In this document: in pieces, positions 18,037 to 44,647 of the stretch | Layout: every line of letters begins with the position of its first letter | Position numbering within the stretch: the first letter of the stretch is position 1 | Assembly: GCA_963754485.1 (NCBI GenBank) | Contig: CAVWFY010000011.1 | Span: forward strand, 156,833-220,832 | Reading direction: 5' to 3' | Length of the DNA: 64,000 nt | From: an uncultured Chloroflexia bacterium | Lineage (GTDB): Bacteria; Chloroflexota; Limnocylindria; Limnocylindrales; CSP1-4 | Made by a program: the position numbers and the translations under genes | The notes under the pieces: model-generated | What the model saw: only the letters and a program-made list of their open reading frames with translations | Database searches by the model: none | What the model was told of the DNA's origin: nothing

Positions 18037-18152
18037 CCGGACCTTAACACCTCGCACACGACCTGTTGACAGCCCGGCCCGAACTTCGGCTCTGTAGAAG
18101 ACCAGAGGCGTCGCACGCGCTCGGGGCGCGACGCCAGACAAGGAGAACCTCC

Positions 18153-19178
18153 GTGACGCTCGCATCAACCAAGCGCATCGGCGCACTCGCCCTGGCTGCG
18201 ACGGTCCTCGTCGCAGCGTGCGGCAGCTCGACGGCCACGTCCGCCCCCGCCAGCGGCGCTCCTGCCGGTGGTGGCGTGACCGGCGCCATCAACGTGTCCG
18301 GCTCGTCCACCGTCGAGCCGATCTCCACGGGTGTGGCCGAGGCGTTCGCGGCCGCCAACGCAGAGTTCACCTACACCGTCGAGGGCCCCGGAACCGGCGA
18401 CGGGTTCAAGAAGTTCTGCGCGGGCGAGACCGACATCTCCGACGCCTCCCGCAAGATCAAGGACGAGGAGGCCAAGGCCTGCGCCGACGCCGGCATCGAG
18501 TATGTCGAGCTCAAGGTCGCGATCGACGGCATGTCCGTCCTGACCTCGGTGAACAACAAGGCGGTCGCCTGCCTCAGCCTCGCTGATCTATACGCGCTGA
18601 TCGGACCCGAGTCCACCGGGTTCGCCAAGTGGAGTGACGCCGCGGCGCTTGGCAAGGAGCTCGGGTCCAACACCGTCTTCCCCGACGCAGACCTCTCCAT
18701 CACCGGGCCCGGCGAGGAGTCCGGCACGTTCGACAGCTTCGTCGAGCTCGCGATCGCGAAGACCGCCGAGAAGCGTGGCCAGGAACCCAATACCCGCCCC
18801 GACTACACCGCCTCGTCCAACGACAATGCGATCATCGACGGGATCTCGGGCAGCGACACGTCGCTCGGCTGGGTGGGCTTCGCCTTCGCCGAGGAGAACA
18901 GGGACAAGGTCAGCGAGATCCAGGTCTCCAAGGACGTCAACGGGACCTGCGTCGCCCCGACTCCCGAGACCATCACCGACGGCTCGTACCCGCTCTCCCG
19001 CGACCTCTTCATCTACGTCAACAAGGCCAAGGCAGCCGCGAACCCCGCCGTCGTCGCCTACGTCGACTACTACCTGGCCGACGGGACGATCGACTCGGTC
19101 CTCCAGACCGTCCCCTACGTCGGCCTCACGGCCGAGGCGCTCGCCGAGACGCGGGCGACCTGGGACGCGTCGAAGTAG
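18153..19178 (+). CDS. pstS: Phosphate ABC transporter substrate-binding lipoprotein PstS
   Basis: AGGAGA RBS at 18141-18146, GTG start, lipobox LVAAC, PstS-like body. Confidence 0.9.
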   Translation: MTLASTKRIGALALAATVLVAACGSSTATSAPASGAPAGGGVTGAINVSGSSTVEPISTGVAEAFAAANAEFTYTVEGPGTGDGFKKFCAGETDISDASRKIKDEEAKACADAGIEYVELKVAIDGMSVLTSVNNKAVACLSLADLYALIGPESTGFAKWSDAAALGKELGSNTVFPDADLSITGPGEESGTFDSFVELAIAKTAEKRGQEPNTRPDYTASSNDNAIIDGISGSDTSLGWVGFAFAEENRDKVSEIQVSKDVNGTCVAPTPETITDGSYPLSRDLFIYVNKAKAAANPAVVAYVDYYLADGTIDSVLQTVPYVGLTAEALAETRATWDASK

Positions 19179-19199
19179 CCCTGCGGCCCTTCTCCTCCG

Positions 19200-19236
19200 C
19201 GAACGGGCCGGCGCGCTTGGGCGCCCGGCTCGTTCG
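19200..19236 (+). promoter_or_regulatory. GC-rich stem-loop between pstS and pstC (intra-operon attenuator or mRNA-stability element)
   Basis: cgaacgggccggcgcgc-ttgg-gcgcccggctcgttcg imperfect inverted repeat read directly. Confidence 0.35.
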
Positions 19237-19289
19237 TTCCCGTATCCTCGCCACCTACCCTCCGACCACACAGGAGCCGTGACCAGCTG

Positions 19290-20219
19290 ATGGCCCAGGC
19301 AAGTCCAGCCCTCCCGGCCGGGATGTCGCTGCGCGGCAGCGCCCGGCGGCGACGTCGCGAGACCATCGTCCGCGGCCTGTTCCTCGCCGCGTCGCTGGTC
19401 ACCATCCTGATCAGCTTGTTCATCATCGAAACGGTCCTTGTCGAGGCGATCAGCTTCCTGTCGCAGATCGATCTCGGCCAGCTGTTCGGCATCGGGTGGT
19501 TCCCACGCCGCGGCATCTTCGACGTCTCGACGATCGTGATCGGGACCCTCATCGTCACGGCGATCGCCATGGTGATCGCGACGCCGGTCGGCATCTTCTC
19601 GGCGATCTACCTCTCCGAGTACGCCACACCCCGCTTCCGGCGGACCGTCAAGCCGGTCCTCGAGGTCCTCGCGGGCATCCCCAGCGTCGTCCTGGGGTTC
19701 TTCGCCCTGACGCTGCTCACGCCGTCGGTCATCAGGCCGCTGTTCGAGGAGGCTAACTCGTTCAACCTCGCGGCCGCGGGGCTGGGCGTCGGAATCCTGT
19801 CGATCCCCCTGGTCGCCTCCGTCGCCGAGGACGCGATGCGCGCGGTGCCCCAGAACCTGCGCGAGGCTTCCTACGGCCTCGGCGCCCGCAAGATCACGAC
19901 GTCACTCCGGGTGGTCTTCCCGGCCGCGATCTCGGGCATCGTGGCCGCGCTCATGCTCGCGACCAGCCGCGCGATCGGCGAGACCATGGTGGTGGCGGTC
20001 GCCGCTGGTGCTCCCCAGGCGCGGACGCTCAACCCACTCGACCCGGGCGGCACGATGACCTCCGCCATGGTCGGGCTGGCCACGGGCAGCGACCAGGTGA
20101 CCGGCAACAGTGCGGCCTTCCAGAGCCTGTTCTTCATCGGGCTCCTGCTGTTCCTCATCACGCTCGTCCTGAACGTCGTGGGCGACGCGTTCGTCCGGCG
20201 CGCCCGGCAGAAGTATTAG
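19290..20219 (+). CDS. pstC: Phosphate ABC transporter permease PstC
   Basis: Six TM helices, EAA-like loop, and position after pstS. Confidence 0.9.
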   Translation: MAQASPALPAGMSLRGSARRRRRETIVRGLFLAASLVTILISLFIIETVLVEAISFLSQIDLGQLFGIGWFPRRGIFDVSTIVIGTLIVTAIAMVIATPVGIFSAIYLSEYATPRFRRTVKPVLEVLAGIPSVVLGFFALTLLTPSVIRPLFEEANSFNLAAAGLGVGILSIPLVASVAEDAMRAVPQNLREASYGLGARKITTSLRVVFPAAISGIVAALMLATSRAIGETMVVAVAAGAPQARTLNPLDPGGTMTSAMVGLATGSDQVTGNSAAFQSLFFIGLLLFLITLVLNVVGDAFVRRARQKY

Positions 20220-20229
20220 GAGCTCGACG

Positions 20230-21171
20230 ATGTCCTCCATCGGCTCCTCCGCCGCGGCAACAAGCGCGAGCGTGCGTGCAGGGATCACGGGCGCCGGGCG
20301 GCGTGACGTCTGGGGCTACGTCTTCCAGGCCTTGCTCCTCGGAAGCCTGCTGGTCTCGCTCGCGATCCTGTTCGTCCTGATCGCGGACGTCCTGGGCCGC
20401 GCGGTCCCGGTCTTCGCGGACCGCGGGCTCGGGTTCCTCACCTCGCCCCTGTCGTCCAACCCCGCCAAGGCCGGGATCGTCCAGGGCCTCGTCGGCACGG
20501 CAATCCTGGCAGCCATCGTGGCGCTCCTGGCCTTCCCCTTCGGCCTGGCCACCGCGATCTACCTCGAGGAATACGCCGCCGACACCAAGCTCACCCGCTT
20601 CATCCAGATCAATATCCGCAACCTCGCGGGCGTCCCGTCGGTGGTCTACGGCCTGTTGGGCCTGTCGGTCTTCGTCGCGTTCATGAACTCAGTGGACGGA
20701 GGTGGGTCCGGGCGCAACATCCTGGCCGGTGGCATCACGCTGGCTGTGCTGGTGCTGCCGATCGTGATCATCACCTCCATCGAAGCGTTGCGGTCCGTGC
20801 CGAACACCATCAGGGAGGCGGGCTACGGCGTGGGGGCCTCGCGCTGGGAGGTGACGCGCCAGCTCGTGCTTCCCTCGGCAGCACCCGGAATCCTGACCGG
20901 CACGGTGCTCGCGCTCTCCCGGGCGCTGGGCGAGACCGCGCCGCTGATCCTGGTCGGGGCCGTCCTCGGATCGTTCTCCGGGCTGTCCATCTCGACCTTG
21001 TTCACCGGCAGCTACACCGCCCTGCCGGTCATCGTGTACGACTGGGCCCGCAAGCCGCAGGAGGCCTTCCGGGCCGACGCCGCCGCAGCCATCGTCGTCC
21101 TGCTCATCATTACGATCGTCGCGAACGTGATCGCGATCCTCCTGCGCAGTCGCTACGAGCGGGCCTGGTGA
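20230..21171 (+). CDS. pstA: Phosphate ABC transporter permease PstA
   Basis: Permease homology and operon position. Confidence 0.9.
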
Positions 21172-22076
21172 TGCCCGACACCACCGGAGAGCCCATGACC
21201 GCCCCGACCATATTCGTCCCCGAGTCCCCCTCGCCGGCTGCGCCCGGACCGGCAGTGCCAATCCACGTCGAGCGCCCGTCGGAGGGCGACGGTGCGGTCG
21301 CGTCCCCCAGGGGCGAGGACGTCATCCGCATCGAGAACCTGGACTTCTACTACTCCAAGTTCCGCGCGGTGAAGGGCATCAGCATCGCGTTCGAAGCGCG
21401 CAAGATCACCGCCCTCATCGGTCCGTCTGGCTGCGGCAAGTCCACCCTGCTCCGGACCATCAACCGGATGAACGACCTGATCACGGGGACCCGCGTCGAG
21501 GGCAAGGTGCTCTACCACGATGTGGACCTCTATGCGAAGGACGTGGACGCGGTCGAGGTCCGCCGGCGGATCGGGATGGTGTTCCAGAAGGCGAACCCCT
21601 TCCCGAAGTCGATCTACGACAACGTCGCGTTCGGCCCCCGGATCAACGGCTACAAGGGCAACATGGACGAGCTCGTCGAGTCGAGCCTGCTCCGTGCCGC
21701 CCTCTGGGACGATGTGAAGGACAAGCTCAAGCAGTCCGGCCTGGCCCTCTCGGGCGGCCAGCAGCAGCGTCTGTGCATCGCGCGGGCCATCGCGACCAGC
21801 CCGGATGTCATCCTGATGGACGAGCCGTGCTCCGCACTGGACCCGCGCTCCACGCTCCAGATCGAGGAGCTGATGTTCGAGCTCAAGGAGCAGTACACGA
21901 TCGTCATCGTGACCCACAACATGCAGCAGGCCGCCCGCGCGTCGGACTACACGGTGTTCCTGAACATGGCCGACGATCGGGCGGGATACGTCGTTGAAGA
22001 GGGGCCGACGCTGGGCATCTTCACGAACCCCCAGAACCAGCTCACCGAGGATTACGTCTCCGGCCGGTTCGGCTGA
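21168..22076 (+). CDS. pstB: Phosphate ABC transporter ATP-binding protein PstB
   Basis: [31 protein letters not shown]; the start overlaps the pstA stop (GTGA). Confidence 0.9.
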
Positions 22077-22095
22077 GCGGCGGAGGAGCAACCCC

Positions 22096-22869
22096 ATGGA
22101 CAACCAGCACGGCTCCGGTCCGCACGTGGCGGACGCCTTCGGCGGCAGCTTCGACGATCTCTCGCCGGCCCAACCCGTCGAAGCGCCGGGTCCCGCCTTC
22201 CCGCCCACCCACGGGATCCGCAGCGCCTACGACCGCGAGATCGCGGAGGTCAAGGACAACGTCCTGCGAATGGGCTCCATGGTGGAGGCGCAGATCCATG
22301 CGGCGATCGGGTCGCTCGTGGCGCACGACGCCGATGCCGCCACGCAGGTGATCCTCGACGACCGGCAGATCAACGAGGTCCAGCGCAAGGCCACGGCGAT
22401 GATCGCCGCCGTGATCGCAACCCAGAACCCCGTGGCCCGCGACCTGCGCTACCTGCTGACCCTGGACCACGTGAGCTACGAGCTGGAGCGCATGGGCGAC
22501 CACGCTGGCTCCGTGGCCAAGCAGGCACGCAAGCTGGCCCCCTACCCGCCCCTCAAGGACTACGTGCTGCTGCCGCAGCTGGGCGAGCGGGTGGCGGACC
22601 TGGTGCAGGGCATCATCCGGGCCCTCGTGGACGTCGACCAGGACCGGGCGCGCGAGGTGGCCAAGCTGGACGACGAGGTGGACGAGCTGTACCACCGCAT
22701 CTTCAGCGAGGTGCTGGAGCTGATGCGGACCGACCCGGCCAACGTGGATCCCGGGACGCGGATCCTGTTCGCCGCCCACTACCTCGAGCGCATCGGCGAC
22801 CGCGTCACCAACATCGCCGAGGACATCGTGTTCCTCGCCTCGGGCGAGGTAGAGGACCTGAACCAGTGA
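22096..22869 (+). CDS. phoU: Phosphate signalling complex protein PhoU
   Basis: Two PhoU repeats (ELERMGDHAGSVAK and ERIGDRVTNIAEDIVF); start taken at MDNQHGS. Confidence 0.85.
   Translation: MDNQHGSGPHVADAFGGSFDDLSPAQPVEAPGPAFPPTHGIRSAYDREIAEVKDNVLRMGSMVEAQIHAAIGSLVAHDADAATQVILDDRQINEVQRKATAMIAAVIATQNPVARDLRYLLTLDHVSYELERMGDHAGSVAKQARKLAPYPPLKDYVLLPQLGERVADLVQGIIRALVDVDQDRAREVAKLDDEVDELYHRIFSEVLELMRTDPANVDPGTRILFAAHYLERIGDRVTNIAEDIVFLASGEVEDLNQ

Positions 22870-26161: not shown

Positions 26162-26165
<4 letters not shown>
24849..26165 (-). CDS. Sugar ABC transporter permease (CUT2; XylH/AraH/GguB-like)
   Basis: 10-12 TM helices and typical CUT2 permease sequence. Confidence 0.85.
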
Positions 26166-27715
<1,550 letters not shown>

Positions 27716-27838
27716 AGCACCGCCGCCCTCTCGCCCTCGTGTAGTGGATATGGAGACTGTGGTGGATATGAAAACGCGGGTGTGCGAGGTCGGTGACCGC
27801 CGCACACCCGCGATGGTGATCCTAGTCTAAGGCAGCGC

Positions 27839-28990: not shown

Positions 28991-29127
28991 CTGTACTAGA
29001 TCTCCTCCTCTTGTGGGGCGGGTGCCCCACGGTCTCGCGTCCCCCGTTCGCCCCAGCTGCTGACGGTCATACCGCCTGTGCTGCTGGTGGAACCATGCGG
29101 CTCCAGGTCGATGTCGGTGAACGCTTG

Positions 29128-29155
29128 CCGTTATCGTTCCCGTGAACGATAACGG
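29128..29155. promoter_or_regulatory. 28-bp inverted repeat CCGTTATCGTTC-ccgt-GAACGATAACGG; candidate LacI/AraR operator
   Basis: Perfect 12-bp arms; between the araA stop and the binding-protein start; GTGAACGCT half-site at 29116-29124. Confidence 0.4.
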
Positions 29156-29252
29156 TCGCATGCTATGCGCCTGACGCACCCTGCGTCAAGCCGGTCCGTC
29201 AAGCCCGAAACCGGTTCTGAAATCGGGCCATCCGGGTGACGATCGGCCCGTC

Positions 29253-30758
29253 CTACAGCCCCTTTGCCAGCAGCCAGTAGAGGTCGTTCCACCGGAGCTG
29301 ATCGCGGAAGCCATCGATCGTGGTCGTCTCGTCGATGACCAGGATCTCGACCCCGGACATCGCAGCGAAGTCTCGCAGATGTTGCGCCGTCACGCTGAAT
29401 CCGAGGCTGGTGTGATGCGAGCCGCCCGCGTAGATCCAGGCGGCGGCGCCGGTCCGAAGGTCGGGCCGTGGGCGCCAGACGGCGCGGGCGACCGGGAGCT
29501 TCGGGAGGGGCTGCTCCGCGGGCACGACGTCGACGACGGTCGCGACCATCCGGAAGCGCTGCCCCATGTCGGTGATGCAGGCGGCCACCGCGGGTCCCGG
29601 GTGCGCGTCGAAGACGAGCCGGACCGGGTCCTCCTTGCCGCCGATGGACAGAGGATGGACCTCGAGGCGGGGGCGGTCGCCCGCGATGGACGGGCAGACC
29701 TCGAGCATGTGCGCGCCAAGGATCAGGTCGTCGTCACCCGTGAGGTGGTAGGTGTAGTCCTCCATGAACGACGTGCCGCCGGGGAGCCCGGCCGACATGA
29801 CCTTCATGGCGCGGACCATCGCAGAGGTCTTCCAGTCCCCTTCCCCGCCGAAGCCATATCCGTCGGCCATCAGGCGCTGGACGGCGAGCCCCGGGAGCTG
29901 CTTGAGGCCGTGCAGGTCCTCGAAGGTGTCGGTGAACGCGGTGAAACCGCCGTCCACCAGGAATCGGCGCAGACCGAGCTCGATCCGGGCGCCGTCACGC
30001 AGGCTCTGCGCGCGGTCGCCGCCCGGCCGGAGCTCCGCGGCCACGAGGTACTCGTCGAGGTACTGCGCCACCAGGGCGTCCACCTCCGCGTCGGAGGCCT
30101 CGTTCACGACCTTGACGAGGTCGCCCACGCCCCACGTGTTGACGGAGAAGCCGAGCCGGCGCTGGGCCTCCACCTTGTCGCCGTCCGTGACCGCGACCTC
30201 GCGCATGTTGTCGCCGAAGCGCGCGATCTTCCCGTTCTGCCAGTCGGTCTTGGCGCACGCCGCCCGCGCCCAGACTCCGATCTCCTCCTGGACCGAGGCG
30301 TCGCCCCAGTGGCCCACGACCACCTTGCGCTCCAGGCGCAGGCGGGCGGCGATGAACCCGAACTCCCGGTCGCCGTGGGCGGCCTGGTTCAGGTTCATGA
30401 AGTCCATGTCGATGTCGGCCCAGGGAATCTCGCGGTTGTACTGCGTGTGCAGGTGCAGGAACGGCTTGTCCAGGGCCTCGAGGCCGGCGATCCACATCTT
30501 GGCGGGGCTGAACGTGTGCATCCAGGTGATCAGGCCCACGCAGGCCGGGTCTGCATTGGCCTCGCGGACCAGGGCCAGGATGCCGTCCGAGCCCGTCAGG
30601 ACCGGCCTGGTTACGACGCGGACGGGGATCGCCGGCGCATCGTCCAGGGCCGCCGCAATCTGGGCCGAGTGCTGGGCGACGTGCTCCAGCGTCTCCGGAC
30701 CGTAGAGGTGCTGGCTGCCGGTGACGAACCAGACCTCGGATGCCGCCAGGTTGAGCAC
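29253..30758 (-). CDS. araA: L-arabinose isomerase
   Basis: [14 protein letters not shown]-terminus and [14 protein letters not shown]; GTG start at 30756-30758; the upstream part of the 741-aa ORF is a shadow. Confidence 0.9.
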
Positions 30759-30787
30759 GTGAATCTCCCAGGGTGCGGCTCGGCGCG

Positions 30788-31435
30788 TCAGCGCTGGCCG
30801 TAGACGTTCATATAGCGGTCGTGGAGCCTGGCCACGACATCCTCGGGGAGGACATCGGGCGTGCCCAGCTGGAGGGCCATGAAGACCGTCGCGGCCACAT
30901 CCTCGGTCATGACGGCGGCCTTGACGGCCGCCTTGGCCGTGGGGCCGATCGTGAACACGCCGTGGTTCTTGAGCAGGATCGCGGGCGAGGCGCCGATGCC
31001 CTCGACCACGAGCTTGCCGATCCCCTCGTCGCCGATCAGCGTGAAGCCCGCGCACGGGATCTCGCCGCCGAACTCGTCCGCCTGGGCGGTGAGGTAGACG
31101 GGGATCGACCGCCCCACGGCCGCGAACGCGGTCGCGTAGCGGGAGTGCGTGTGCACGACCCCGTTCACGTCCGGTCGGTGGCGGTAGATGTAGAGGTGGC
31201 TCGCCGTGTCGGAGCTGGGCGAGTAGCTGCCCTCCACGACCGTCCCGTCGGGATCCACGACAACCATCGTCTCCGCGGTCAGGTCCTCGTAGCGGACGCC
31301 GGAGGGCTTGATCGCCACCAGGCCCGTCTCCGGGTCGCGGGCGGACACGTTGCCGCCCGTCCAGCGCACCAGGTCGTTCGCGGGCAACTCCGCATGGAGC
31401 GCCACGAGTTGCTCGCGCAGTGTCGCGAGGCGCAT
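30788..31435 (-). CDS. araD: L-ribulose-5-phosphate 4-epimerase
   Basis: Class II aldolase/adducin fold with metal-binding His residues (HTHS...H); start taken at [10 protein letters not shown]. Confidence 0.85.
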
Positions 31436-31490
31436 CAGCCCACCTCTGTCGTGACCCGCGGCGCCACCGTCGTGACAATCGGCGCGCGGA

Positions 31491-31517
31491 CCGTTATCGT
31501 TCCCGTTAGCGTTCACG
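31491..31517. promoter_or_regulatory. Second copy of the operator-like element (CCGTTATCGTTCCCGT + TAGCGTTCACG) in the araD / LacI divergent region
   Basis: Shares a 16-mer with the 29128 site and contains AGCGTTCAC, the reverse complement of the GTGAACGCT half-site. Confidence 0.4.
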
Positions 31518-31584
31518 CTACCACATCGACGCAACGCCGAGACCGGCCCCAGACGTCTTCGGCCACACGAGGAGCGCCAACATC

Positions 31585-32718
31585 TTGCACCGGCAGCACA
31601 GGGTGACGATCAAGGAGATCGCCGCGATGACGGGCGTCTCCACGCAGACCGTCTCCCGCGTGATCAACAACCGCCCCGATGTCTCACCGGAGACACGACG
31701 GGCCGTTGAGGCCGCCATCGCGGAGCACGGGTTCCAGCCCAGCGCGGTCGCCCGGAGCCTCGTCCAGCGGCGTTCGCAGATGCTGGGCGTCATCGTCGCC
31801 GGACTCAAGTACTTCGGCGTCGCCCAGACCGTGAACGGGATGGCGGAGGCCACGGAGGCCGCCGGCTACTCGATCATCCTCAAGGAGCTGGGCAGCTTCG
31901 ACCTGCCGGACATCGTCCCGGTCGTGGAGTTCTTCGTCGCGCATCGGGTGGAGGGGATCATCTTCGCGCCGCCCCAGATGGGCGCCAACATCCGCCACCT
32001 GCAGGAGCAGCTGCCGCCTTCGACCCCGCCGGTGATCTTCCTCAAGGCCGAGCCGAGCGAGCGGTTCCAGTCGATCGGGATCGACAACGTGGAGGCCGCC
32101 CGGGTCGCCACCCGCCACCTCCTTGCGCTGGGCCGCACGCGGGTCGCGCACCTGGCCGGACCGCTGGAGTGGCGCGAGGCCCGCGACCGTCGCGACGGCT
32201 GGCTTGACGCGCAGGCCGAGGCGGGCCTGGAGCCCGGGCCGATGGCCGTCGGCGACTGGACGTCCGCCAGCGGCGCCGCCGCGTTCGCCCGGATCCTGGA
32301 GGCGGACCCGACGGTGGACGCGTTGTTCGCCGCGAGCGATCAGATGGCCCTGGGCGCCATGCACGTCGCCAATGCACGCGGGATCCGCATCCCGGAACAG
32401 CTGGCCGTCGTGGGCTTCGACGGGATCCCGGAGGCGGCGGAGTTCACGCCGTCACTGACCACCATCCGCCAGCCGCTCCAGGAGATCGGCAGGCTCGCCG
32501 TACAGGAGCTGGTGGCCAGCTTCGAGTCCGAGACCGGGCCTGTCGCGCGGACCATCACGCTGCCAACGGAGCTCGTGCTCGGCGACAGCGCTCCGATGCC
32601 GATGGTCGCGGGGACAGCCGGGGCTAGCGGCACCGGGGCGACCGGGGCCGGGGCGACCGGGGCATCTGCGACCCGACCCGCCCGTCGCGAGGCCCGCTCG
32701 GTGCCGGCTGCGACCTGA
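31585..32718 (+). CDS. LacI-family transcriptional regulator (probable arabinose-locus repressor)
   Basis: HTH IKEIAAMTGVSTQTVSRVIN and periplasmic-binding-like core; divergent from araD. Confidence 0.85.
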   Translation: MHRQHRVTIKEIAAMTGVSTQTVSRVINNRPDVSPETRRAVEAAIAEHGFQPSAVARSLVQRRSQMLGVIVAGLKYFGVAQTVNGMAEATEAAGYSIILKELGSFDLPDIVPVVEFFVAHRVEGIIFAPPQMGANIRHLQEQLPPSTPPVIFLKAEPSERFQSIGIDNVEAARVATRHLLALGRTRVAHLAGPLEWREARDRRDGWLDAQAEAGLEPGPMAVGDWTSASGAAAFARILEADPTVDALFAASDQMALGAMHVANARGIRIPEQLAVVGFDGIPEAAEFTPSLTTIRQPLQEIGRLAVQELVASFESETGPVARTITLPTELVLGDSAPMPMVAGTAGASGTGATGAGATGASATRPARREARSVPAAT

Positions 32719-32766
32719 CCCCGGCGCTCCGGCCCGTGCCATGGGCTGGCCGCCCTGCCCTCGGCG

Positions 32767-33460
32767 CTACCCGTCGAGCGCGGCCGCCTCCACGCAGCAG
32801 GCGACGACGCCCAGACGGGCCAGCCGATCGAATGTCGCGCGACGGCGCACCGTCCAGGCTGCCACCTCGAGGCCGGCCTCCCGCGCACGCACGATCGAGG
32901 GCGGGGTGATTGCGCCCCACAGGACGGAGACCGCGCGACAGCCCAGGTCAACCGCCAGCGAGAGCGTCGCGGGCGAGAGATCCTCCGCGTTGAGCCAGCG
33001 GGTCCACCCCGGCAGGCGGTCCCGCATCACGACGAGCGTCGTCGGCTCGAAGGACGAGACCACCGCCGTCGACGGTGCCTCGCCGCGAGCCGAGCGCATG
33101 ACGGCCGCCGTGACCTCTCCATGACCGTCTCCCTTGAGCTCGATGTCCATCCAGGCCTTCGGGAGCGCGGCGAGCACGTCGTCGAGGCGCGGAATCCCGT
33201 GACCGGCGAGCTCCGAGGTCTCGACGCGGTCCACGCCCAGCGGCACGTGCTGGACGCGCTCGAGCGTCGCATCGTGGAGCAGGACCGGGACGCCGTCGCG
33301 TGACAGGCGGACGTCAAGCTCCACGCCATGGCAGCCAGGAATTCCTCGTCGCAGCAAGCAGCGCCTCGAGCGTGTTCTCCGGGGCGACCCGCCAGTCGCC
33401 GCGGTGCGCGAGCCGAAGGGGCCGCCGCCCCTCCCCGGGTCCAGCCCCGAGCCGGGTCAC
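32767..33460 (-). pseudogene. Glycerophosphodiester phosphodiesterase (GDPD) family gene interrupted by one +1 frameshift near 33330-33350
   Basis: N-terminus LAHRGDWRVAPENTLEALLAA in one frame and GVELDVRLSRDGVPVLLHD in another; span is 3n+1; the shift lies in a gagg context. Confidence 0.6.
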
Positions 33461-33476
33461 CCGCGGCCCCAGCGGG

Positions 33477-34235
33477 TCACCCGTCGGCCTTGCCGACGAC
33501 CACGTGCGCGGCGACGCCCACGTGGTCCGACGGGTACAGCGTGGGATCGCCGACGGCCGGGCGGTCGAAGACCAGGCGGGCATCCTCGGCGCGGACGGCG
33601 CCACGCAGCCAGAGGTAGTCCATGCAGCCCGGGTCTCCATCGGTGTCCATGCCGGGGGCGATGAGGCCCGAGGGCCAGGTGACCGCCGGCTCCTCGCCGT
33701 TGGCCTGGACGTACGCCGACGCGAAGCTGGCGGCGGTGATGCGAGCGTACGCCGGCTCGTCGGGCTCCGCATTGAAGTCGCCGGCCACGATGAGCGCGTC
33801 GTGCTCCGGCAGGTCGTCGAGCCACGCGAGGAGGCGATCGACCTGGGCGACCCGGATCTCCTCGTCCGCAGGGACGTGGTGCAGGTGCGTGACCGCGAAG
33901 ACGAGGCGGGCGCCGCCGGGGAGCACGAGCCGCACCCGGTGGGCGGAGCGCGTTGCCCCCAGGTCAAGGCGCTCGGTGTCCGTCGCGCGCAGGGGCTGTC
34001 TGACCAGGAGGCTGTTGCCGTATTCGGGGCGGCCCGCCCAGCCGCGAACGGCCTCGTAGCGGCCCTCACCCGCCGCACCCAGCAGACGGTCCTGCTGCAG
34101 CGGGTAGACGACCTCGTTGAGCCCGAGCAGGTCCGGCTGGAGGGCGGCCATGTCCGCGAGCAGCAGCGGCAGGCGTTCGTCCCAGCGATCGGCCAGGTTG
34201 CGGATGTTGAGGGTCGCGACGAGCAGACGGTCCAC
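33477..34235 (-). CDS. Endonuclease/exonuclease/phosphatase (EEP) family protein
   Basis: LLVATLNIRN N-terminus and PSDHVGV C-terminal motif; GTG start. Confidence 0.75.
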   Translation of the reverse strand: MDRLLVATLNIRNLADRWDERLPLLLADMAALQPDLLGLNEVVYPLQQDRLLGAAGEGRYEAVRGWAGRPEYGNSLLVRQPLRATDTERLDLGATRSAHRVRLVLPGGARLVFAVTHLHHVPADEEIRVAQVDRLLAWLDDLPEHDALIVAGDFNAEPDEPAYARITAASFASAYVQANGEEPAVTWPSGLIAPGMDTDGDPGCMDYLWLRGAVRAEDARLVFDRPAVGDPTLYPSDHVGVAAHVVVGKADG

Positions 34236-34251
34236 GGCAGGCTCCTCGGGG

Positions 34252-35472
34252 TCAGGCGGTGGCCGGCGGCACGGACAGGGGCGGCACGGACAGGGGCGAC
34301 GCGGGCACGAGGATGGGGATGGTCACGGTGAAGGTGGACCCGGCGCCCTCATCGGACTCCACCGCGATCTGGCCGGCGTGGCCCTCCACCACGTGGCGGG
34401 CGATGGCGAGGCCGAGTCCAGTACCGCCGCCCCGCATGCGCGCCCGATCGGCCTTGTAGAACCGCTCGAAGATCCGCGCCCTGTCTGCACGCTTGATGCC
34501 GATGCCGTGGTCCGTGACGCTGAGCTCGATGACGTCGCCCGCGCGCCGGACCGCGACCCGGACCTCCCCGCCGTCTGGGCTGAACTTGATGGCGTTGTGG
34601 ACGAGGTTGACCACGACCTGGCCGAGGCGGGCCTCGTCGCCGCGCACGGTCGGCAGGTCCCGCTCGGTCTCCGTCACGAGCGTGACCCCGCTGCGCTCGG
34701 CGAAGGGGCGGAGGCGCTCGGCGGATGCGGCGGCGAGCTGCGCGAGATCCACGTCGTCCAGGAGGCGCAGCCGGGAGCCACCCTCCATCCGGGCGAGGTC
34801 CAGCATCTCGTTGACCATCTGGACGATATGGCCCGTCTCCACCTCGATGAGCGCGATGCGCTCGCGCATCCGGGGCGGGACGTCGGCGACCTCCGCCTCC
34901 CGGGCGAGGGTCTCGGCGAGCAGGGTGACAGTGGACAGCGGGGTGCGCAGCTCGTGGCCCAGGTTGTCGATGAACTCCGTCCGGATCTGCTGGAGCCGGC
35001 GCAGCTCGGTGACGTCCTCGAGAACCAGGACGAGGTCGTCCGGCGCCAGGCGGTGGGCGCTCACGACGAGAATGCGCGGCTCCGCGGTCCCGGCCCGGTG
35101 CTCCACGGTCGTGGCGCCGCCGACGGGCACGGCGTCCAGCGCCGCCTCGACGCGGACGTCCAGGAACGCCTCCATGACGCTCCGACCCGGCAGGCGCCCG
35201 GAGACGCCGAGCAGAGCGTGAGCCCGCTCGTTCGCGGCGCTGATCCGGTGATCGGTGCCGACGTGCAGGACGCCGACCGGCAGCAGGCCGATGTCGCGCT
35301 GAGACATCGCGCCGGGATCCGTGCCCGCGGCGGCTGCGGGCGCGACTGCCGCTTCCGCCGTCGCAGCCTCCACGATCCGGTCCAGCTCGTCGGTCCGGCG
35401 CCGGATCACGAGCAGCGCGGCCCCCAGCGCGACGGCCAGGCCGATGACGGCGATCCAGGACAGCCCTTCCAT
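34252..35472 (-). CDS. Two-component sensor histidine kinase (TM plus PAS-like plus HisKA plus HATPase_c); no cognate regulator adjacent
   Basis: H-box LGHELRTPL, N-box LVHNAIKFS, G-boxes DHGIGI / GTGLGLAI. Confidence 0.85.
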   Translation of the reverse strand: MEGLSWIAVIGLAVALGAALLVIRRRTDELDRIVEAATAEAAVAPAAAAGTDPGAMSQRDIGLLPVGVLHVGTDHRISAANERAHALLGVSGRLPGRSVMEAFLDVRVEAALDAVPVGGATTVEHRAGTAEPRILVVSAHRLAPDDLVLVLEDVTELRRLQQIRTEFIDNLGHELRTPLSTVTLLAETLAREAEVADVPPRMRERIALIEVETGHIVQMVNEMLDLARMEGGSRLRLLDDVDLAQLAAASAERLRPFAERSGVTLVTETERDLPTVRGDEARLGQVVVNLVHNAIKFSPDGGEVRVAVRRAGDVIELSVTDHGIGIKRADRARIFERFYKADRARMRGGGTGLGLAIARHVVEGHAGQIAVESDEGAGSTFTVTIPILVPASPLSVPPLSVPPATA

Positions 35473-35498
35473 GCGGCCGAGGATCGCACAGCCGAGGG

Positions 35499-36620
35499 TC
35501 AGCGTGCGCGGCGCACGTCCGGCGCCGTGGCGCCGTCACCACCGGCTCCCGCTTCGCCAACGGTGGCGGCCGTCCAGGGAGCGACCAGCGCCGCGTGGAT
35601 CACGGGCGGGAACGCGTGGCGGAGGGCAGTCACGTGGCCGACTCGTGCCGCCAGGCGCCGGGCCCGCGTCGCGACCGCGGGTGCGAGCCCCTCGACCGGA
35701 ACGGCCGCCGCCACGTCCCGCGCCGCGAGCAGGGCGGAGATGCGGAGCGCCTCGTCCTCGTCGCGGTCCAGGGCCTCGGGCCAGGGACGGTCGTCGCCCG
35801 CGATCCCCTGCGACGCGCGGAGGAACGCCGCCAGCTCCGTGCGGGTGAGCACGGCGGCCCGATCGCGCAGGCCCGCCACCTCGCCGCCGTTGGGGCCATA
35901 GCGAGGCTGGTCGATTGACGCGTCCCACGCTCGGAACAGGCGCTCGCGGGCACGCCCGCGGAACGGCTCGGCCAGCAGGTCATCCAGAAAGGGCGCGAGG
36001 ACGAGCTCCGCCGCGACGCCGAGGAGTCCCTCTCGGAGCCCGACCTCCGTCCATCGCTCCGGTGGCACACGCCGCACGAGCTCCACCTCCGCCGCAGCAA
36101 AGGCGCCCCTGGCCTCCGGGGGGAGGAACCGGCGGACGGTGGCCAGGAAGGCGATCGGCGGCGGCTCCGCGGCGGCCAGGCGGTCCAGCTCGTCCGGGTT
36201 CAGCTTCTCCACGCGGGCGAGGAAGCGGGCGACCCGCTCCGCCGGGGTGCCGCGGACGAGGTCCGGTCGCGTGGACCGGCGGCCCCCGGGCGCGGTCGCG
36301 CGCGACCCTGGCTGGCGTGCCCACGGGGTCCGCGAGACGCGCGGGCGGTACCCGGGCCTGCGGGCGCCGCCGCCAGCCGCGGAGGCCGGGCCCAGCCGGT
36401 CGGCGTCGTAGCGGGCGCGCAGCGCCGGGTCGCTCAACCAGTCGTGGGCGACGTTGATCCGCTTCGCGCGGTCGAGGGCGTCCGTGCCGTCGCCGGCGAC
36501 ATCGGGATGGTGCTGCTTGAGCAGCGCGCGCCAGGCTAGCTCGATGGCCTCCGGCGAGGCATCGACCGCCACTTCAAGGCGTGCGTAGAGGTCGTCGTCG
36601 GGGACAAGGGGGGCGGGCAT
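35499..36620 (-). CDS. J-domain (DnaJ N-terminal domain) protein with a 300-aa uncharacterised C-terminal region
   Basis: DLYARLEVAVDASPEAIELAWRALLKQHHPD (HPD motif); ends 27 nt before the sensor-kinase start. Confidence 0.65.
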   Translation of the reverse strand: MPAPLVPDDDLYARLEVAVDASPEAIELAWRALLKQHHPDVAGDGTDALDRAKRINVAHDWLSDPALRARYDADRLGPASAAGGGARRPGYRPRVSRTPWARQPGSRATAPGGRRSTRPDLVRGTPAERVARFLARVEKLNPDELDRLAAAEPPPIAFLATVRRFLPPEARGAFAAAEVELVRRVPPERWTEVGLREGLLGVAAELVLAPFLDDLLAEPFRGRARERLFRAWDASIDQPRYGPNGGEVAGLRDRAAVLTRTELAAFLRASQGIAGDDRPWPEALDRDEDEALRISALLAARDVAAAVPVEGLAPAVATRARRLAARVGHVTALRHAFPPVIHAALVAPWTAATVGEAGAGGDGATAPDVRRAR

Positions 36621-36650
36621 CTCGACGCTCCTCGGCCACCCTCGCCCCGC

Positions 36651-38370
36651 TCAGATGGGCGTGGGAGCGCGACCGGCCAGGAAGGCCTCGACGTCCTCGA
36701 TGGAGCGGACCACCTTCTCGCCGGTCTCGCGGTTCTTGACCTCGATCCCGCCGGCCTCCAGCGAGCGTGGGCTGACGGTGAGGATCCAGGGCATGCCCAG
36801 GAGGTCGGCGTCGGCGAACTTCACGCCCGGGGACTCGTCGCGATCGTCGTACAGGATCTCGTGGCTTGGCCCCGCGGCGGCGGCCAGGTCGTGGAGTCGC
36901 TCCGCGATCACGGTGACCTCGGGGTTCTTGTTGGCGCCGAGCGCGACCAGGTGCGCCGGGTACGGGGCGACCTCGGCGGGCCAGGCGATGCCCCGCTCGT
37001 CGTGGTGGGCCTCGACGATGCAGGCGACGTTGCGCCCGAGGCCGATGCCGTACGAGCCCATGACGATGGGGTGGCGCTCGCCATCCTCGCCCAGGTACTC
37101 GGCACCGAGGGCTCTGGTGTACTTCGTCCCGAGCTTGAAGATGTTGCCGACCTCGATGCCGTTGCGCAGGATCACGGTCCCGCCGCAATCGGGGCAGGCG
37201 TCGCCTTCGCGGACGCTGGCGATGTCGGTGACGATGTCCGGCGTGAAGTCGCGCGGGACGTTGACGTTGCGCAGGTGGAAGCCCGGCCGGTTGGCACCGG
37301 CGACGAGGTTCGCGCTCTTCGCGGCCAGCGCGTCCACGACCACGAGCGCGTCGCGGGCACCTATCGGTGAGCCGTAGCCGGGCTCCATGCCGCGCGCCTT
37401 GATCTCGTCGACCTGGGCCGGGCGCAACCCGCCCACCGCCTTGATCGCGTTGACAAGCTTCGTCTCGTTGACGTCGTGATCGCCCCGGACGATGGCCACC
37501 ACGAACTGGCCGGCACCGGTCACGAAGAAGGTGGCCTTGGCCGTCCTGCTCGTGGGCACGCCGAGGAAGGCGGCCAGGCTGTCGATCGTCGTGGCGTCGG
37601 GCGTCGCGACCTCCTCGATCGCGAGGGGCTCCTCCGCGACCGGGTCCGGCGCCGTCGTCGGCGCGACCTGGCGGTTCGAGGCATAGCCGCAGGACTCGCA
37701 CAGGACGAGCACGTCCTCGCCCGCCGGGTTGAGGAACATGAACTCGTGGGCCAGCGAGCCGCCCATCATCCCGACGTCCGAGGACACGGCCACGGTTGCG
37801 AGGCCCAGGCGCTCGAAGATCCGGGTGTACGCCGCGGTGGTGCGCCCAGTACGCCGTGTCGAGGCCGGCCTCGTCCCGGTCGCAGGTGTAGCTGTCCTTC
37901 ATGACGAACTCGCGGACGCGGATCAGGCCGCCGCGCGACCGGGGCTCGTCGCGGAACTTCGTCTGGAAGTGGTAGACGATGAACGGCAGCTGCCGGTAGC
38001 TCCGCACGATGTCCCGAAGCAGGTCAGCGACGACCTCCTCGTGCGTCATGGCGAGCACCATGTCGCGGTCCGCACGGTCCTTGAAACGGGCCATCTCGGG
38101 GCCGATCGCGTCGTAGCGGCCGGTCTCGCGCCAGAGATCCGCCGGGTGGACCACCGGCATCTCCATCTCCTGCCCGCCGATCGCGTTGAGCTCCTCGCGG
38201 ATCACCTGCTCCACCCGCTTGCTGACGCGGAAGCCCAGCGGCAGCAGCGAGTAGATGCCGGCGCCCAGCTGGCGCACGTAGCCCGCCCGCAGCAGCAGGC
38301 GGTGGGACGGCATCTCCGCCTCGGAGGGATCGTCGCGGAGCGTGGTGAAGAACAGGTTGGAAAGGCGCAT
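36651..38370 (-). pseudogene. proS: Prolyl-tRNA synthetase (bacterial type with editing domain) carrying a single +1 frameshift near 37825-37832; probably a sequencing indel in an essential gene
   Basis: N-terminal 179 aa in one frame (MRLSNLFFTTLRDD...DTAYWAHHR) and the remaining 380 aa (..AYTRIFERLGL...) in another; span is 3n+1; removing one g from cgcggcg restores AHHRAYTRIFERLGL. Confidence 0.85.
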
Positions 38371-38405
38371 GGCGCGAAGGATACCGGGCCGGAGGCGCCG
38401 GGCGG

Positions 38406-39527
38406 TCAGCCCACCGCGAACAGCGCCAGCAGCACCCCGCCCGCCACCGTGCTCGCAACCTGGCCGGCCGCGTTGGCGCCCATCGCGTGCATCAGCGGGA
38501 AGTTCTCGAAGTCGTCCTGCTGTGCGACGCGCTGGACGACGCGTGCCGCCATCGGGAAGGCGCTGATCCCGGCGGCGCCGATGAGCGGGTTGAACGTCCC
38601 GCCCGAGACCGTGTTGATGCCCTTGGCGAACACGATCCCGGCCGCGGAATCCAGCGCGAACGCGAGGATCCCGAGGACCAGGATGGCCAGGGTGCTGGGC
38701 AGGAGGAAGGTCTCGCCCACCATCGTGGAGCCGATGGCGAGCCCCAGGAACAACGTCACGACGTTCGCGATCTCGTTGGCGGACGCGTGGGTCAGGCGCT
38801 CGACGACGAGCGACTCGCGCATGAGGTTGCCCAGCATCAGCGAGCCGACGAGCGGCGTCGCGAACGGGACGAGGATCCCCACCACCATGGTCACCGCCAC
38901 GGGAAAGATGATCCGGGTGCGGCGGCTGACCGTTCGTCCGCCGTAGGTCATCCGGATCTTGCGCTCCTTCTCGGTCGTGAGCAGGCGCATGACCGGCGGC
39001 ATGATCAGCGGCACGAGCGCCATGTAGCTGTAGGCGGCTACGGTGATGGGACCCAGCAGCTGTGGCGCCAGGATCCCGGAGACGTAGATGGAGGTGGGGC
39101 CGTCGATGGCGCCGATGACCCCGATGGACGCCGCCTCGGGCCGGGTGAACCCGATGGCGAGGGCGAGCAGCATCACGGCGAAGATGCCGAACTGGCCCGC
39201 AGCTCCAAGAAGGACCATCTTCGGGTTCTCCAGCAACGGCCCGAAGTCCGTCATCGCGCCGATGCCGATGAAGATCAGCAGCGGGAACAGCTCGTTCTCG
39301 ATGCCCGCCTCGTAGAGGACGGTGAGCAGCCCGTCGGGGCCGATGACCGGGGACAGCGGCAGGTTCGCCAGCAGACAGCCTGCGGCGATGGGCAGGAGCA
39401 GGAGCGGCTCGTAGTCCTTGACGATCGCGAAGTACAGGAGGAGGCCCGCCACCGCGAACATGACCACGGACTGCCAGCTCAGCGCCGTGACCCCTGCGAG
39501 CAGCTGGTCGATCGTCTCCTGGCTCAT
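38406..39527 (-). CDS. Na+-translocating decarboxylase beta subunit (OadB/MmdB/GcdB family)
   Basis: Polytopic membrane protein with typical beta-subunit sequence (FIGIGAMTDFGPLL, NLMRESLVVERL). Confidence 0.85.
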   Translation of the reverse strand: MSQETIDQLLAGVTALSWQSVVMFAVAGLLLYFAIVKDYEPLLLLPIAAGCLLANLPLSPVIGPDGLLTVLYEAGIENELFPLLIFIGIGAMTDFGPLLENPKMVLLGAAGQFGIFAVMLLALAIGFTRPEAASIGVIGAIDGPTSIYVSGILAPQLLGPITVAAYSYMALVPLIMPPVMRLLTTEKERKIRMTYGGRTVSRRTRIIFPVAVTMVVGILVPFATPLVGSLMLGNLMRESLVVERLTHASANEIANVVTLFLGLAIGSTMVGETFLLPSTLAILVLGILAFALDSAAGIVFAKGINTVSGGTFNPLIGAAGISAFPMAARVVQRVAQQDDFENFPLMHAMGANAAGQVASTVAGGVLLALFAVG

Positions 39528-40045
39528 CCCGGGACGTCGCCCAGCCGCACCATGGGGTCGCCGGGACCGACGGGCTGCCCCGCCTCGACCTCGATGGACA
39601 CGACCACGGCGGCACGCGGCGCGCGTATCGTGTTGCGCATCTTCATCGCCTCGAGGACGAGCACCGGGTCACCGCGCTTGAGTACCGCGCCGGGCACGAC
39701 GTGGACCTCGAGGACGACGCCGGGCATGGGCGCGGCCAGCACGTCGGCGCGGGCGCCCCCACTCGCGACGCCCGGCGTGCCCGCGGTGGTCCGTGGGGGT
39801 CGTCCCGGGTCGGCCGGAGGCGGCGCGGACGGGGCGTGCGAGACGGAGGAGACCGCCGCCGGTGCTCGCGGTTCGTCGGGGACCGGCATCACCGGTGAGA
39901 TCACCGCCCCGGGCAGATCCTGGTCGGATTCCAGGGTGGCCTCGAACGTCTGGTCGCCGACGGTGACCTCGAAGCGGTCGGCGGCCGTCTCGATGACGTC
40001 GAGCGTGAAGGGGGTGCCGTCCACGGCGACGGTATAGCGGCGCAC
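39524..40045 (-). CDS. Biotin carboxyl carrier subunit of the decarboxylase
   Basis: Biotinyl-lysine motif LEAMKM near the C-terminus and a Pro/Ala linker; overlaps the beta subunit by 4 nt. Confidence 0.75.
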   Translation of the reverse strand: MRRYTVAVDGTPFTLDVIETAADRFEVTVGDQTFEATLESDQDLPGAVISPVMPVPDEPRAPAAVSSVSHAPSAPPPADPGRPPRTTAGTPGVASGGARADVLAAPMPGVVLEVHVVPGAVLKRGDPVLVLEAMKMRNTIRAPRAAVVVSIEVEAGQPVGPGDPMVRLGDVPG

Positions 40046-40048
40046 GGG

Positions 40049-40438
40049 CTACCTCCGGCGACGCCAGGACTGACCCTGGCGGGTGCGGCCCGCGGCGACC
40101 CAGCGGCTGGCGAACAGCAGGCTGCCCGGCCAGTAGCTGCGCATCGCGGGTGCGGCCTGGAGGCGGCGTGCCTCCTCGTGCCGCAGGATGGCGACGGTGA
40201 TGGCGGCGACCAGCCTGGGGTCCACGTCGCCCGCGCCGACGAGGTGGACGGTGGGCGCGGGGCCGGCGACGGACGACCCGGTGGTCGCGGCGACGGGCGT
40301 CGCGCCGGCCTTCGTGGCCGCTGCGCGCGCATCGAGCTTCATCAGGACGGTGAGCAGGGCCCACACGATCGCGAGCACGGAGAACACGATGGCCATGCCC
40401 ACCAGCGCCGTTCGCAACCCGAAGAGCAGGTCGTCCAT
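40049..40438 (-). CDS. Small membrane-anchored subunit (OadG/MmdD-like) of the decarboxylase
   Basis: Single N-terminal TM helix plus Ala/Pro-rich region; operon position. Confidence 0.5.
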   Translation of the reverse strand: MDDLLFGLRTALVGMAIVFSVLAIVWALLTVLMKLDARAAATKAGATPVAATTGSSVAGPAPTVHLVGAGDVDPRLVAAITVAILRHEEARRLQAAPAMRSYWPGSLLFASRWVAAGRTRQGQSWRRRR

Positions 40439-40443
40439 CGTCG

Positions 40444-41988: not shown

Positions 41989-42240
41989 ATGCTGGAGCCT
42001 GCGCCCCTGGGGCGGTTCCGGCCAACGGCCGATCGGCACAGGCGCGGGCCGCGGATGGCGGGGTCGAACCGGGCACCCCGGCGGCGCACTAGGGTCCGAA
42101 CCGCCCCCGGCCGCACAGCCACGCGTTAACGTCCCATGAACGCCGGTATGCTCTGGGGATCGCGGCACTGCGCGATCGGCCCGTCCCCGCCGCTCGTGGA
42201 ACCCCCTCGTCTCAACACGCATTCGAGGCGCACCGGCATC

Positions 42241-43951: not shown

Positions 43952-44647
43952 TCAGGCAGGGCGGCGGAACACGTAGCCGACGCCGCGCACCGTCTGCAGC
44001 AGCTCCGGTGCGGCCGGGTCCTGCTCGAGCTCCGCACGGAGCCAGTGCACGTGCACGTCCACGGTTCGCGACTCGCCGGCGTAGTCGTAGCCCCAGACCT
44101 TCTCCAGGAGCTGGTCGCGGGTGAACACCTGCCCCGGGTTGCGCACGAGGAACGCGAGCAGCTCGAACGCCTTGGGCTTGATGGGCACCGCCTGGCCGTC
44201 ACGCAGGACACGGTGACCGGCGAGGTCCACCTGGACCTGGCCCAGATCCACGAACGGCGGCGGGGCCTGCGTCGCGGCCAGCTGCTCGGCGCGGCGGAAG
44301 ATCGCGCGGATGCGGGCGGTGAGCTCACGCAGGCTGAAGGGCTTGGTCACGTAGTCGTCCGCGCCCAGCTCCAGGCCCACGACCTTGTCCACCTCGCCGT
44401 CGCGGGCGGTCAGCATGATGATCGGGACCTGCGACTCCGCGCGGAGAATCCGGCAAACCTCGACACCGGACAGCTCCGGCAGCATGAGGTCGAGGAGCAC
44501 GAGGTCCGGCTGGTCGGCACGGAAGCGGATCAGCGCCTCGCGTCCGTTTGCGGCGGGGATGGCCCGGTAGCCCTCGAGCTCGAGCGCCTCAACGAGGGTC
44601 TCGCGCAGGGTCTTCTCGTCGTCCACGACGAGGATGGTGCGGATCAT
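43952..44647 (-). CDS. OmpR-family response regulator (PhoP/RegX3-like) with a canonical receiver
   Basis: ILVVDDE, LVLLDLMLP, LTAR, K-containing loop and trans_reg_C. Confidence 0.9.
   Translation of the reverse strand: MIRTILVVDDEKTLRETLVEALELEGYRAIPAANGREALIRFRADQPDLVLLDLMLPELSGVEVCRILRAESQVPIIMLTARDGEVDKVVGLELGADDYVTKPFSLRELTARIRAIFRRAEQLAATQAPPPFVDLGQVQVDLAGHRVLRDGQAVPIKPKAFELLAFLVRNPGQVFTRDQLLEKVWGYDYAGESRTVDVHVHWLRAELEQDPAAPELLQTVRGVGYVFRRPA

Follow-up and report, generated by a model that had tools for sequence, protein, structure and literature searches.

A lineage-restricted J-domain protein beside a PhoR-type sensor kinase in Limnocylindria: a conserved neighbourhood that probably reflects inherited synteny

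Here we describe two neighbouring genes in a stretch of 64,000 nucleotides (nt) of contig CAVWFY010000011.1, from an uncultured Chloroflexia bacterium of the class Limnocylindria (the whole stretch is hereafter called the window): one encodes a J-domain protein of 373 amino acids (aa), here referred to as J, and the other, directly downstream on the same strand, a PhoR-type sensor histidine kinase. In a preliminary description of this DNA the two genes were regarded as co-operonic, and the kinase as an orphan for which J might act as a partner. According to our analysis, the adjacency of J and the kinase is best explained by synteny inherited within a gene block conserved in Limnocylindria and is not evidence for a partnership, a reading to which we assign a probability of roughly 0.6. 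What is new at this locus is the J-protein family and its C-terminal domain; the kinase itself is of an ordinary type.

The J gene (35499..36620, minus strand) and the kinase gene (34252..35472, minus strand, 406 aa) both have a third-position GC content of 0.89-0.93, which is of the coding type, in a window with a GC content of about 71%. Between the J stop codon (ending at 35499) and the kinase ATG (35472) there are 26 nt; the closeness reported previously is thus correct, whereas the figure of 27 nt is not. This gap contains a conserved 13-nt element, TGTGCGATCCTCG (35478..35490, minus strand), at 5 nt 5′ of the kinase ATG. The element was found by aligning the J-kinase gaps across loci, has the consensus TGTGCGAT[CG]CTCG just 5′ of the kinase start codon, and is unique in the window. 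Among 77 kinase loci it occurs without mismatch in 43, with one mismatch in 20 and with two in 7; in 66 of these 70 loci with at most two mismatches the spacer between element and start codon measures 4-5 nt. A Shine-Dalgarno (SD)-like sequence was found in the 20 nt before the kinase start in none of the 70 loci, whereas the sequence GAGGAG is present 6-7 nt 5′ of the J and EEP (endonuclease/exonuclease/phosphatase family) starts in the window. As read from the sequence, one copy lies 7 nt 5′ of the J start codon (36628..36633, minus strand), within the 30-nt gap that follows the prolyl-tRNA synthetase gene proS, and the other 6 nt 5′ of the EEP GTG start (34242..34247, minus strand), within the 16-nt gap between kinase and EEP.

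The element stays with the kinase where J has been separated from it by 0.6-6.9 kb of other genes (L019, L020, L025, L026, L070, L064, L073 and L074) and also where J has been inverted (L048). At a locus where the kinase has been deleted (L052, 11059-11108), the element sits 7 nt 5′ of the EEP start. It can be read as TGn followed by GAT[CG]CT (GATCCT in the window), with the end of the hexamer 6-8 nt before the start codon, an arrangement that corresponds to an extended -10-like core promoter for a leaderless kinase transcript. This geometry, together with the SD-less start, points to an independent and probably leaderless kinase transcript, and in any reading the element is a kinase-specific start signal that is independent of J. 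At one locus (L045) two copies were observed (2521-2533 and 3920-3932), each followed by an ATGGA start context; one is located about 240 nt 5′ of J and the other before the kinase. Inspection of the element as a Pho box revealed no second repeat at 11-nt spacing, and as a sigma-54 site no GG-N10-GC spacing, so that both readings were rejected.

The proposal that the two genes are co-operonic is not supported by these results. J and the kinase share a strand and a short gap in which no terminator-like site was found, as expected for an operon; a downstream gene that lacks a start signal of its own and is translated through an SD sequence or by coupling, which would also be expected, is not what the kinase represents. 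A scan of 32500-39000 for sigma-70 promoters and intrinsic terminators detected none of the former and a single site resembling the latter, as many as expected by chance; at 72% GC such a scan is uninformative. A search of the whole window against Rfam gave no match, and ARAGORN reported a dubious tRNA-??? at 6868-6956 only.

In the window J and the kinase occupy the middle of a five-gene block, all on the minus strand, which runs from proS (36651..38370) through J and the kinase to the EEP family protein (33477..34235, 252 aa; Pfam Exo_endo_phos, E 4e-20) and a glycerophosphodiester phosphodiesterase (GDPD, 32767..33460; Pfam GDPD, E 1.8e-18, with the match beginning at profile position 23), with gaps of 30 nt between proS and J and of 16 nt both between kinase and EEP and between EEP and GDPD. 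Its conservation was investigated in a J-anchored sample of 80 loci, with one genome per species and J identities of 44-90%. Most of these loci retain the order proS, J, kinase, EEP, GDPD; EEP follows the kinase in nearly all of them, and proS lies directly 5′ of J in nearly all loci of the window's clade (clade A). In most loci an OmpR-type regulator is found on the same strand 4-8 kb 5′ of J, and between the two lie phoU_div and pit, encoded on the opposite strand. With kinase starts re-anchored on the 13-nt element, the distance from J stop to kinase start could be measured in 69 loci: the median was 56 nt, and it was at most 150 nt in 56 loci and more than 500 nt in 10.

Genes for arsenic resistance (ArsR, ArsM, Acr3 and ArsC-like, as judged from translations) have been inserted between J and the kinase in four loci (L019, 11113-17988; L020, 11113-14631; L025, 11101-13973; L026, 11113-12413), and an opposite-strand phoU_div in two others (L064 and L073). 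Arsenate mimics phosphate, and the J-kinase junction appears to be an insertion hotspot within a phosphate locus. A second, unrelated two-component pair is located between J and the PhoR-type kinase in L070 (13035-15187), in L063 (12884-14865) and in the metagenome contigs L089 and L179; its regulator is about 50% identical to the regulator of the window and its kinase about 30% identical to the kinase of the window. In L052 the kinase is cleanly missing and the intact J gene is followed by EEP, while in L016 (7096-7888) the kinase is internally shortened and EEP is absent, again with J intact; both look like natural deletions.

A second clade (clade B, 22 loci, L049-L079, with J identities of 44-54%) carries a conserved opposite-strand gene of about 150-177 aa between proS and J. 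An example is found in L053, where this gene, without an assigned family, lies at 9389-9922 (minus strand) and is followed by an intergenic region at 9923-9994. In front of J these loci share a conserved footprint, (T/A)CTAGCG ... CCACTAGGAT-N6-GTG, with the geometry of a leaderless promoter. Counts of the clade-B promoter-like CACTAGGAT in the window were at chance level, with few intergenic near-matches; similar CTAGG[AG]T sites were observed there 5′ of pit (42087-42095) and of upp (49342-49350).

Seen from the kinase, the association is looser. The kinase-anchored sample was obtained by searching metagenome contigs for the element plus start context as an exact pattern, and is biased by this exact-match requirement. 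Among the 120 contigs listed, a kinase homologue was present directly 3′ of the element in 55, and six more had J upstream and ended before the kinase. Among the matches listed, 38 contigs had at least 1.2 kb of upstream sequence: J was immediately upstream in 21, further away in 3 and missing in 14. A divergent phoU_div was the upstream neighbour in at least 10 of these 14 J-less contigs; two of the 14 (L154 and L187) retain proS, with or without the small opposite-strand gene, and lack J between there and the kinase, and pstS-pstC was found upstream in two of the other four. Despite its bias, the sample demonstrates that the kinase need not have J as its neighbour, whereas phosphate genes adjoin it recurrently.

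Co-variation was assessed as the correlation of pairwise distances in the 29 loci where all six proteins compared were complete and unbroken. The distance matrix of J correlated with that of the kinase (r = 0.74) no better than with those of EEP (0.78), GDPD (0.74) and the regulator (0.80). After proS and the regulator had been regressed out, the partial correlation of J and kinase was 0.30, the lowest among the pairs of J, and that of kinase and EEP was 0.58, the highest overall. The distance correlation, although a weak test, gave no support for a specific relationship between J and the kinase. The specific partnership proposed in the preliminary description thus finds no backing in the loci where either gene stands without the other, nor in co-variation. 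Of the two observations which that description had taken as counting against it, independent promoters and a gene pair not conserved in relatives, an independent start signal for the kinase was found, with a putative promoter function, whereas the pair itself proved to be conserved.

Under the favoured reading of inherited synteny, the kinase would most likely share a transcript with EEP and GDPD, one that is driven by the element at the kinase start and is probably leaderless. In the clade of the window J is probably translated from the proS transcript, as the SD-like GAGGAG in the proS-J gap suggests. J would act with DnaK on client proteins.

The prediction of a J-domain protein with an HPD motif and a large uncharacterised C-terminal region was confirmed. 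The J-domain comprises aa 10-72 (36405-36593; Pfam DnaJ, E 7.6e-13, 48.8 bits against a cut-off of 27.8), and its fold was matched by Foldseek to solved J-domains with target-normalised TM-scores of up to 0.89. The HPD motif is located at aa 38-40 (36501-36509), and H38, P39 and D40 are invariant in alignments of 13 and of 22 intact homologues. A basic, disordered linker follows at aa 80-119 (36264-36383), with an isoelectric point of 12, ten R/K and no D/E residues. In an AlphaFold2 model based on the 22-sequence alignment (mean pLDDT 83.5, pTM 0.77), the C-terminal domain is all-helical, with 13 helices in about 235 aa (aa 120-355, 35556-36263). In the same model the disordered linker spans aa 80-114, and both linker and tail have a pLDDT below 50. 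The disordered tail (aa 356-373) ends in a conserved VRRAR.

The roughly 300 aa beyond the J-domain match no Pfam or NCBIfam family. Foldseek searches against PDB and BFVD matched the J-domain alone, the best matches of the C-terminal domain (cyclin, talin) having probabilities below 0.1, and the alignment of this domain gave nothing significant in a PDB sequence-profile search or a Pfam scan. Conserved motifs of the family include ELDRLxxAEPPPIAF, FRxRARERLxRxW, DQPRYGPN, PWP, EDEALRxS, HxxALRHAF and the C-terminal VRRA(R). With the C-terminal 258 aa as query, 123 clusters at 50% identity were retrieved from 1.84 billion representatives. Many of the cluster representatives are fragments or frameshifted gene calls, and the frameshifted ones were left out of the alignments. 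Full-length homologues are numerous, closely related and essentially all from Limnocylindria-type Chloroflexota.

Assignment of J to the class I/II proteins DnaJ or CbpA was rejected, with NCBIfam scores of 46 bits against a cut-off of 377 for DnaJ and of 24 against 403 for CbpA, since only the J-domain aligns; the “CbpA” labels that J homologues carry in JGI annotations are therefore not supported. Nor did J present the features of the DjlA type: the J-domain is N-terminal, and neither a transmembrane (TM) segment nor a TerB match was found. J is best described as a new, lineage-restricted class-III J-protein family with a previously undescribed helical domain. The literature libraries searched gave no account of the C-terminal domain, nor of a J-protein gene adjoining a kinase of the PhoR type, and a search on Limnocylindria and phosphate returned nothing bearing on the pair. 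The canonical HPD-containing J-domain would be expected to stimulate DnaK, as in other members of its family, and the helical domain presumably selects clients or location. No dnaK gene is present in the window.

A profile built from divergent sequences recovered more distant members of the family. In two divergent members (P0188 and P0197) one to several C-terminal TM helices replace the soluble tail, and P0197 (L081, 6244-7902) adjoins a serine recombinase gene. In one distant branch, all four members tested (P0255, P0263, P0269 and P0250) have an HpcH_HpaI gene on their 5′ side and adjoin an MFS gene on the opposite strand, and none of the four has an adjacent kinase. A member of an intermediate branch (P0300) is found in the order regulator, phoU_div, pit, proS, small gene, J, kinase and GDPD, with PhoU and PstB further downstream. 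The window also contains a second J-domain protein of 231 aa (47349-48044, minus strand), with a low-complexity middle part and a conserved C-terminal motif, which resembles the 373-aa J in its J-domain alone; the two J genes lie within 12 kb. Downstream of this second J gene lie a regulator gene of the DtxR/IdeR type, gltX and the gene of the OmpR-type regulator.

The kinase has the PAS/HisKA/HATPase composition previously attributed to it: HisKA (aa 164-232; E 5e-15) and HATPase_c (aa 278-387; E 1e-31) were recognised by Pfam, and the PAS-like region (aa 61-160) matches PAS_4 weakly, at E 8e-4 and below the gathering score. Both features that define the HisKA class are present, and the H-box reads GHELRTPL, with His173 encoded at 34954-34956. 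There is a single N-terminal TM helix (aa 5-24), compared to two in PhoR of E. coli, and about 4 residues are extracellular. Since PhoR senses through its cytoplasmic side and the extracellular part of the kinase is so short, the kinase must, like PhoR, sense from the cytoplasmic side. The best NCBIfam models, which cover aa 61-386, are PnpS (246 bits, cut-off 400) and PhoR (TIGR02966; 240 bits, cut-off 334), followed by WalK and MtrB; all score below their equivalog cut-offs, so that the curated score for PhoR membership was not reached. The kinase is nevertheless associated in the genome with Pho-regulon genes (pit, phoU_div, pstSCAB-phoU, ppk1, ppx, GDPD and EEP). Because of the PhoR and PnpS models, the phosphate-gene surroundings and the two phosphoesterase genes on its 3′ side, it is probably a membrane-anchored, PhoR-type sensor of phosphate limitation.

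In agreement with the preliminary description, no response regulator gene, and specifically no phoB or phoP, is adjacent to the kinase. The nearest receiver-domain gene, 8.5 kb upstream in conserved synteny, encodes an OmpR/PhoB-family response regulator (43952..44647, minus strand; Pfam Response_reg and Trans_reg_C) located 3′ of gltX, and its product is the sole receiver-domain protein in the window. Its best NCBIfam models (MtrA, YycF and PhoB) belong to the same family set as those of the kinase. Family match and conserved synteny suggest that the kinase most likely signals to this regulator. The term “orphan” is thus apt in a narrow sense only, the likely partner being 8.5 kb away: the kinase is PhoR-like, lies in a phosphate-gene region, and a regulator of the OmpR/PhoB type is kept 4-8 kb upstream next to pit and phoU_div.

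Several observations weigh against inherited synteny as a sufficient explanation, and some of them favour a rival in which J serves the kinase as a dedicated accessory; the C-terminal domain of J would bind the kinase or its complex and its J-domain would bring DnaK for remodelling, so that the balance between kinase and phosphatase activity would follow proteostasis or another cue. J is followed by the kinase in about 85% of the J-anchored species, across the whole range of 44-90% J identity, and still adjoins it after the inversion in L048. In 16 loci the gap is 21-28 nt, which is too short for a terminator and would place the upstream parts of any promoter within the coding region of J; transcription is thus likely to continue from J into the kinase regardless. 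In clade B, J with its own promoter-like site is the first gene of a co-directional J-kinase-EEP-GDPD cluster. The 13-nt element might instead serve as an operator, or act at the RNA level as part of a polycistronic mRNA, given that its hexamer lacks the usual first T and that its conservation is wider than a -10 box needs, and the match of the kinase to the distant regulator is a candidate pairing. A kinase nearly devoid of an extracellular part must sense via cytoplasmic partners, the C-terminal TM helices of some family members are compatible with action at the membrane, and there are precedents in the action of DjlA and DnaK on the Rcs phosphorelay and of DnaK on MprB (PMC11709261, PMC8561658). 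We still regard the dedicated accessory as unlikely, in view of the kinase's own conserved 5′ element and SD-less start, the J-less kinase contigs, the retention of J after kinase loss in L052, the distant J branch with no kinase neighbour and the lack of J-kinase-specific co-variation. Moreover, the housekeeping genes proS and gltX are equally conserved in the block, so that synteny alone does not discriminate. A more specific version seems unlikely to us, in which J is a third component of PhoR-type phosphate sensing, its helical domain docking on the kinase or on a kinase-PhoU_div complex and its J-domain bringing DnaK, so as to switch the kinase between kinase and phosphatase states and tie phosphate signalling to chaperone availability in an abundant soil lineage.

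Two further explanations leave the kinase aside. J could serve the phosphate-starvation response by directing DnaK to Pit/PhoU_div, Pst or the phosphoesterases, or simply by being induced with the Pho regulon, and its location within a phosphate-rich region in two clades, as well as the phosphate- and arsenate-related genes inserted right beside it, would fit. We find this quite unlikely, as proS and gltX share the block without a known phosphate role, the distant J branch occurs in a non-phosphate HpcH_HpaI/MFS context, no Pho-box-like repeat was recognised 5′ of J, and the N-termini of EEP and GDPD lack a signal peptide, which leaves no obvious need for export chaperoning. Alternatively, J might be a co-chaperone associated with the ribosome or a tRNA synthetase, its basic linker and tail touching RNA. 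The SD-containing 30-nt gap after proS in the window's clade, the position of proS directly 5′ of J in nearly all clade-A loci, the strongly basic linker (pI 12) and the conserved VRRAR end point in this direction; however, proS and J are parted by the opposite-strand gene in clade B, where a promoter-like site precedes J itself, and members of the distant branch lie away from proS, which makes a link to translation highly improbable. Inherited synteny within the block remains our preferred reading.

Among known systems, the closest to what had been proposed for J and the kinase is DjlA, a class-III J-protein that recruits DnaK in an HPD-dependent manner and thereby alters the output of the Rcs phosphorelay (PMC11709261). 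DjlA starts with a TM helix, continues with a TerB-like domain and carries its J-domain at the C-terminus, in contrast to the N-terminal J-domain, lack of a TM segment and unrelated all-helical domain of J; djlA is not adjacent to the rcs genes and its effect was seen on overproduction. In Mycobacterium tuberculosis, the Hsp70 protein DnaK acts as a third component that holds the kinase MprB off until it is titrated away (PMC8561658). In that model no J-protein is dedicated to the kinase, and the extracytoplasmic part of MprB is involved, while the kinase of the window has about 4 extracellular residues. With the PhoR-PhoB/PhoP systems (including SenX3-RegX3 and PnpS-PnpR) the kinase shares the TM-PAS-HisKA-HATPase layout and its best models, and the models of the regulator include PhoB. 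As these systems are with PhoU and Pst, it is linked to pst, phoU, pit, ppk, ppx and phosphoesterase genes, and also, in many relatives, to a divergent phoU_div. It differs from them in its scores below equivalog cut-offs, in the distance of 4-8 kb between kinase and regulator genes, and in a PhoU-like neighbour of the DUF47 type. With the class-III (type C) J-proteins (HscB, DjlB/DjlC; unrelated to CbpA), J has in common a J-domain with HPD, a family-specific domain, and the lack of a G/F region, zinc finger and DnaJ C-terminal domains; unlike theirs, its C-terminal domain matches no described family or solved structure.

Should the adjacency be functional, J would be a natural, genome-encoded J-protein dedicated to a two-component kinase, a link so far known from indirect cases only, namely DjlA overproduction on Rcs and DnaK on MprB. 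Independently of this, a new small J-protein family with an unmatched helical domain is defined in Limnocylindria, a class of widespread uncultured soil and freshwater bacteria, and the “CbpA” labels on its members are shown to be unjustified. The “orphan” kinase is probably the phosphate sensor that belongs to a large region of phosphate genes and is re-annotated accordingly, and the well-conserved 13-nt element represents a candidate leaderless promoter or operator in this lineage.

The phosphate genes of the window are found on both sides of the block. On its 5′ side, pit (a PHO4-family phosphate transporter, 42136-43245, plus strand) and phoU_div/DUF47 (43313-43927, plus strand), both identified by Pfam, are convergent with the regulator; in relatives, too, they lie between the regulator and proS, and in one related locus (L086) PhoU and PstB are found near the block. 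On the other side, a phosphate and polyphosphate set (11079-23857), also identified by Pfam, comprises ppk1 (11079-13559), a CYTH-CHAD gene (13388-15346), ppx (ppx/gppA, 15398-17071), pstS-pstC-pstA-pstB-phoU (18066..22869, plus strand) and a His_Phos_1 phosphatase gene. Between this set and the kinase block lies a sugar ABC/arabinose cluster with a LacI regulator (23900-32718). Just 5′ of pstS, a protein of 259 aa (17257-18036, plus strand) has a C-terminal OmpR-type winged-helix (Trans_reg_C), while its first 180 aa contain nothing recognisable as a receiver domain; it may be an atypical, phosphorylation-independent pst regulator.

Two genes of the block appear to be broken in this assembly. 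The proS gene, whose C-terminal part was assigned by Pfam tRNA_edit, HGTP_anticodon and tRNA-synt_2b, is interrupted by one indel near 37800-37832, and a tblastn search with an intact orthologue gave two high-scoring segment pairs in frames -2 and -3. The gene is unbroken in relatives (L001-L005) and is usually held to be essential, for which reason the break probably stems from faulty assembly or sequencing and does not mark a pseudogene. In GDPD there is an apparent frameshift near 33340-33350: the N-terminal HRG...ENT motif shares its frame with the GTG at 33460, and the remainder of the gene is read in another; as the second apparent frameshift within 5 kb, it suggests indel errors in the assembly. 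Finally, a Na+-translocating decarboxylase cluster (38406-42000, minus strand), consisting of a carboxyltransferase, a small subunit, a biotinyl carrier and a beta subunit, is located between proS and pit; only 7 of the 80 related loci have its beta subunit at the corresponding place, so that the cluster seems to have entered the conserved block by a lineage-specific insertion.

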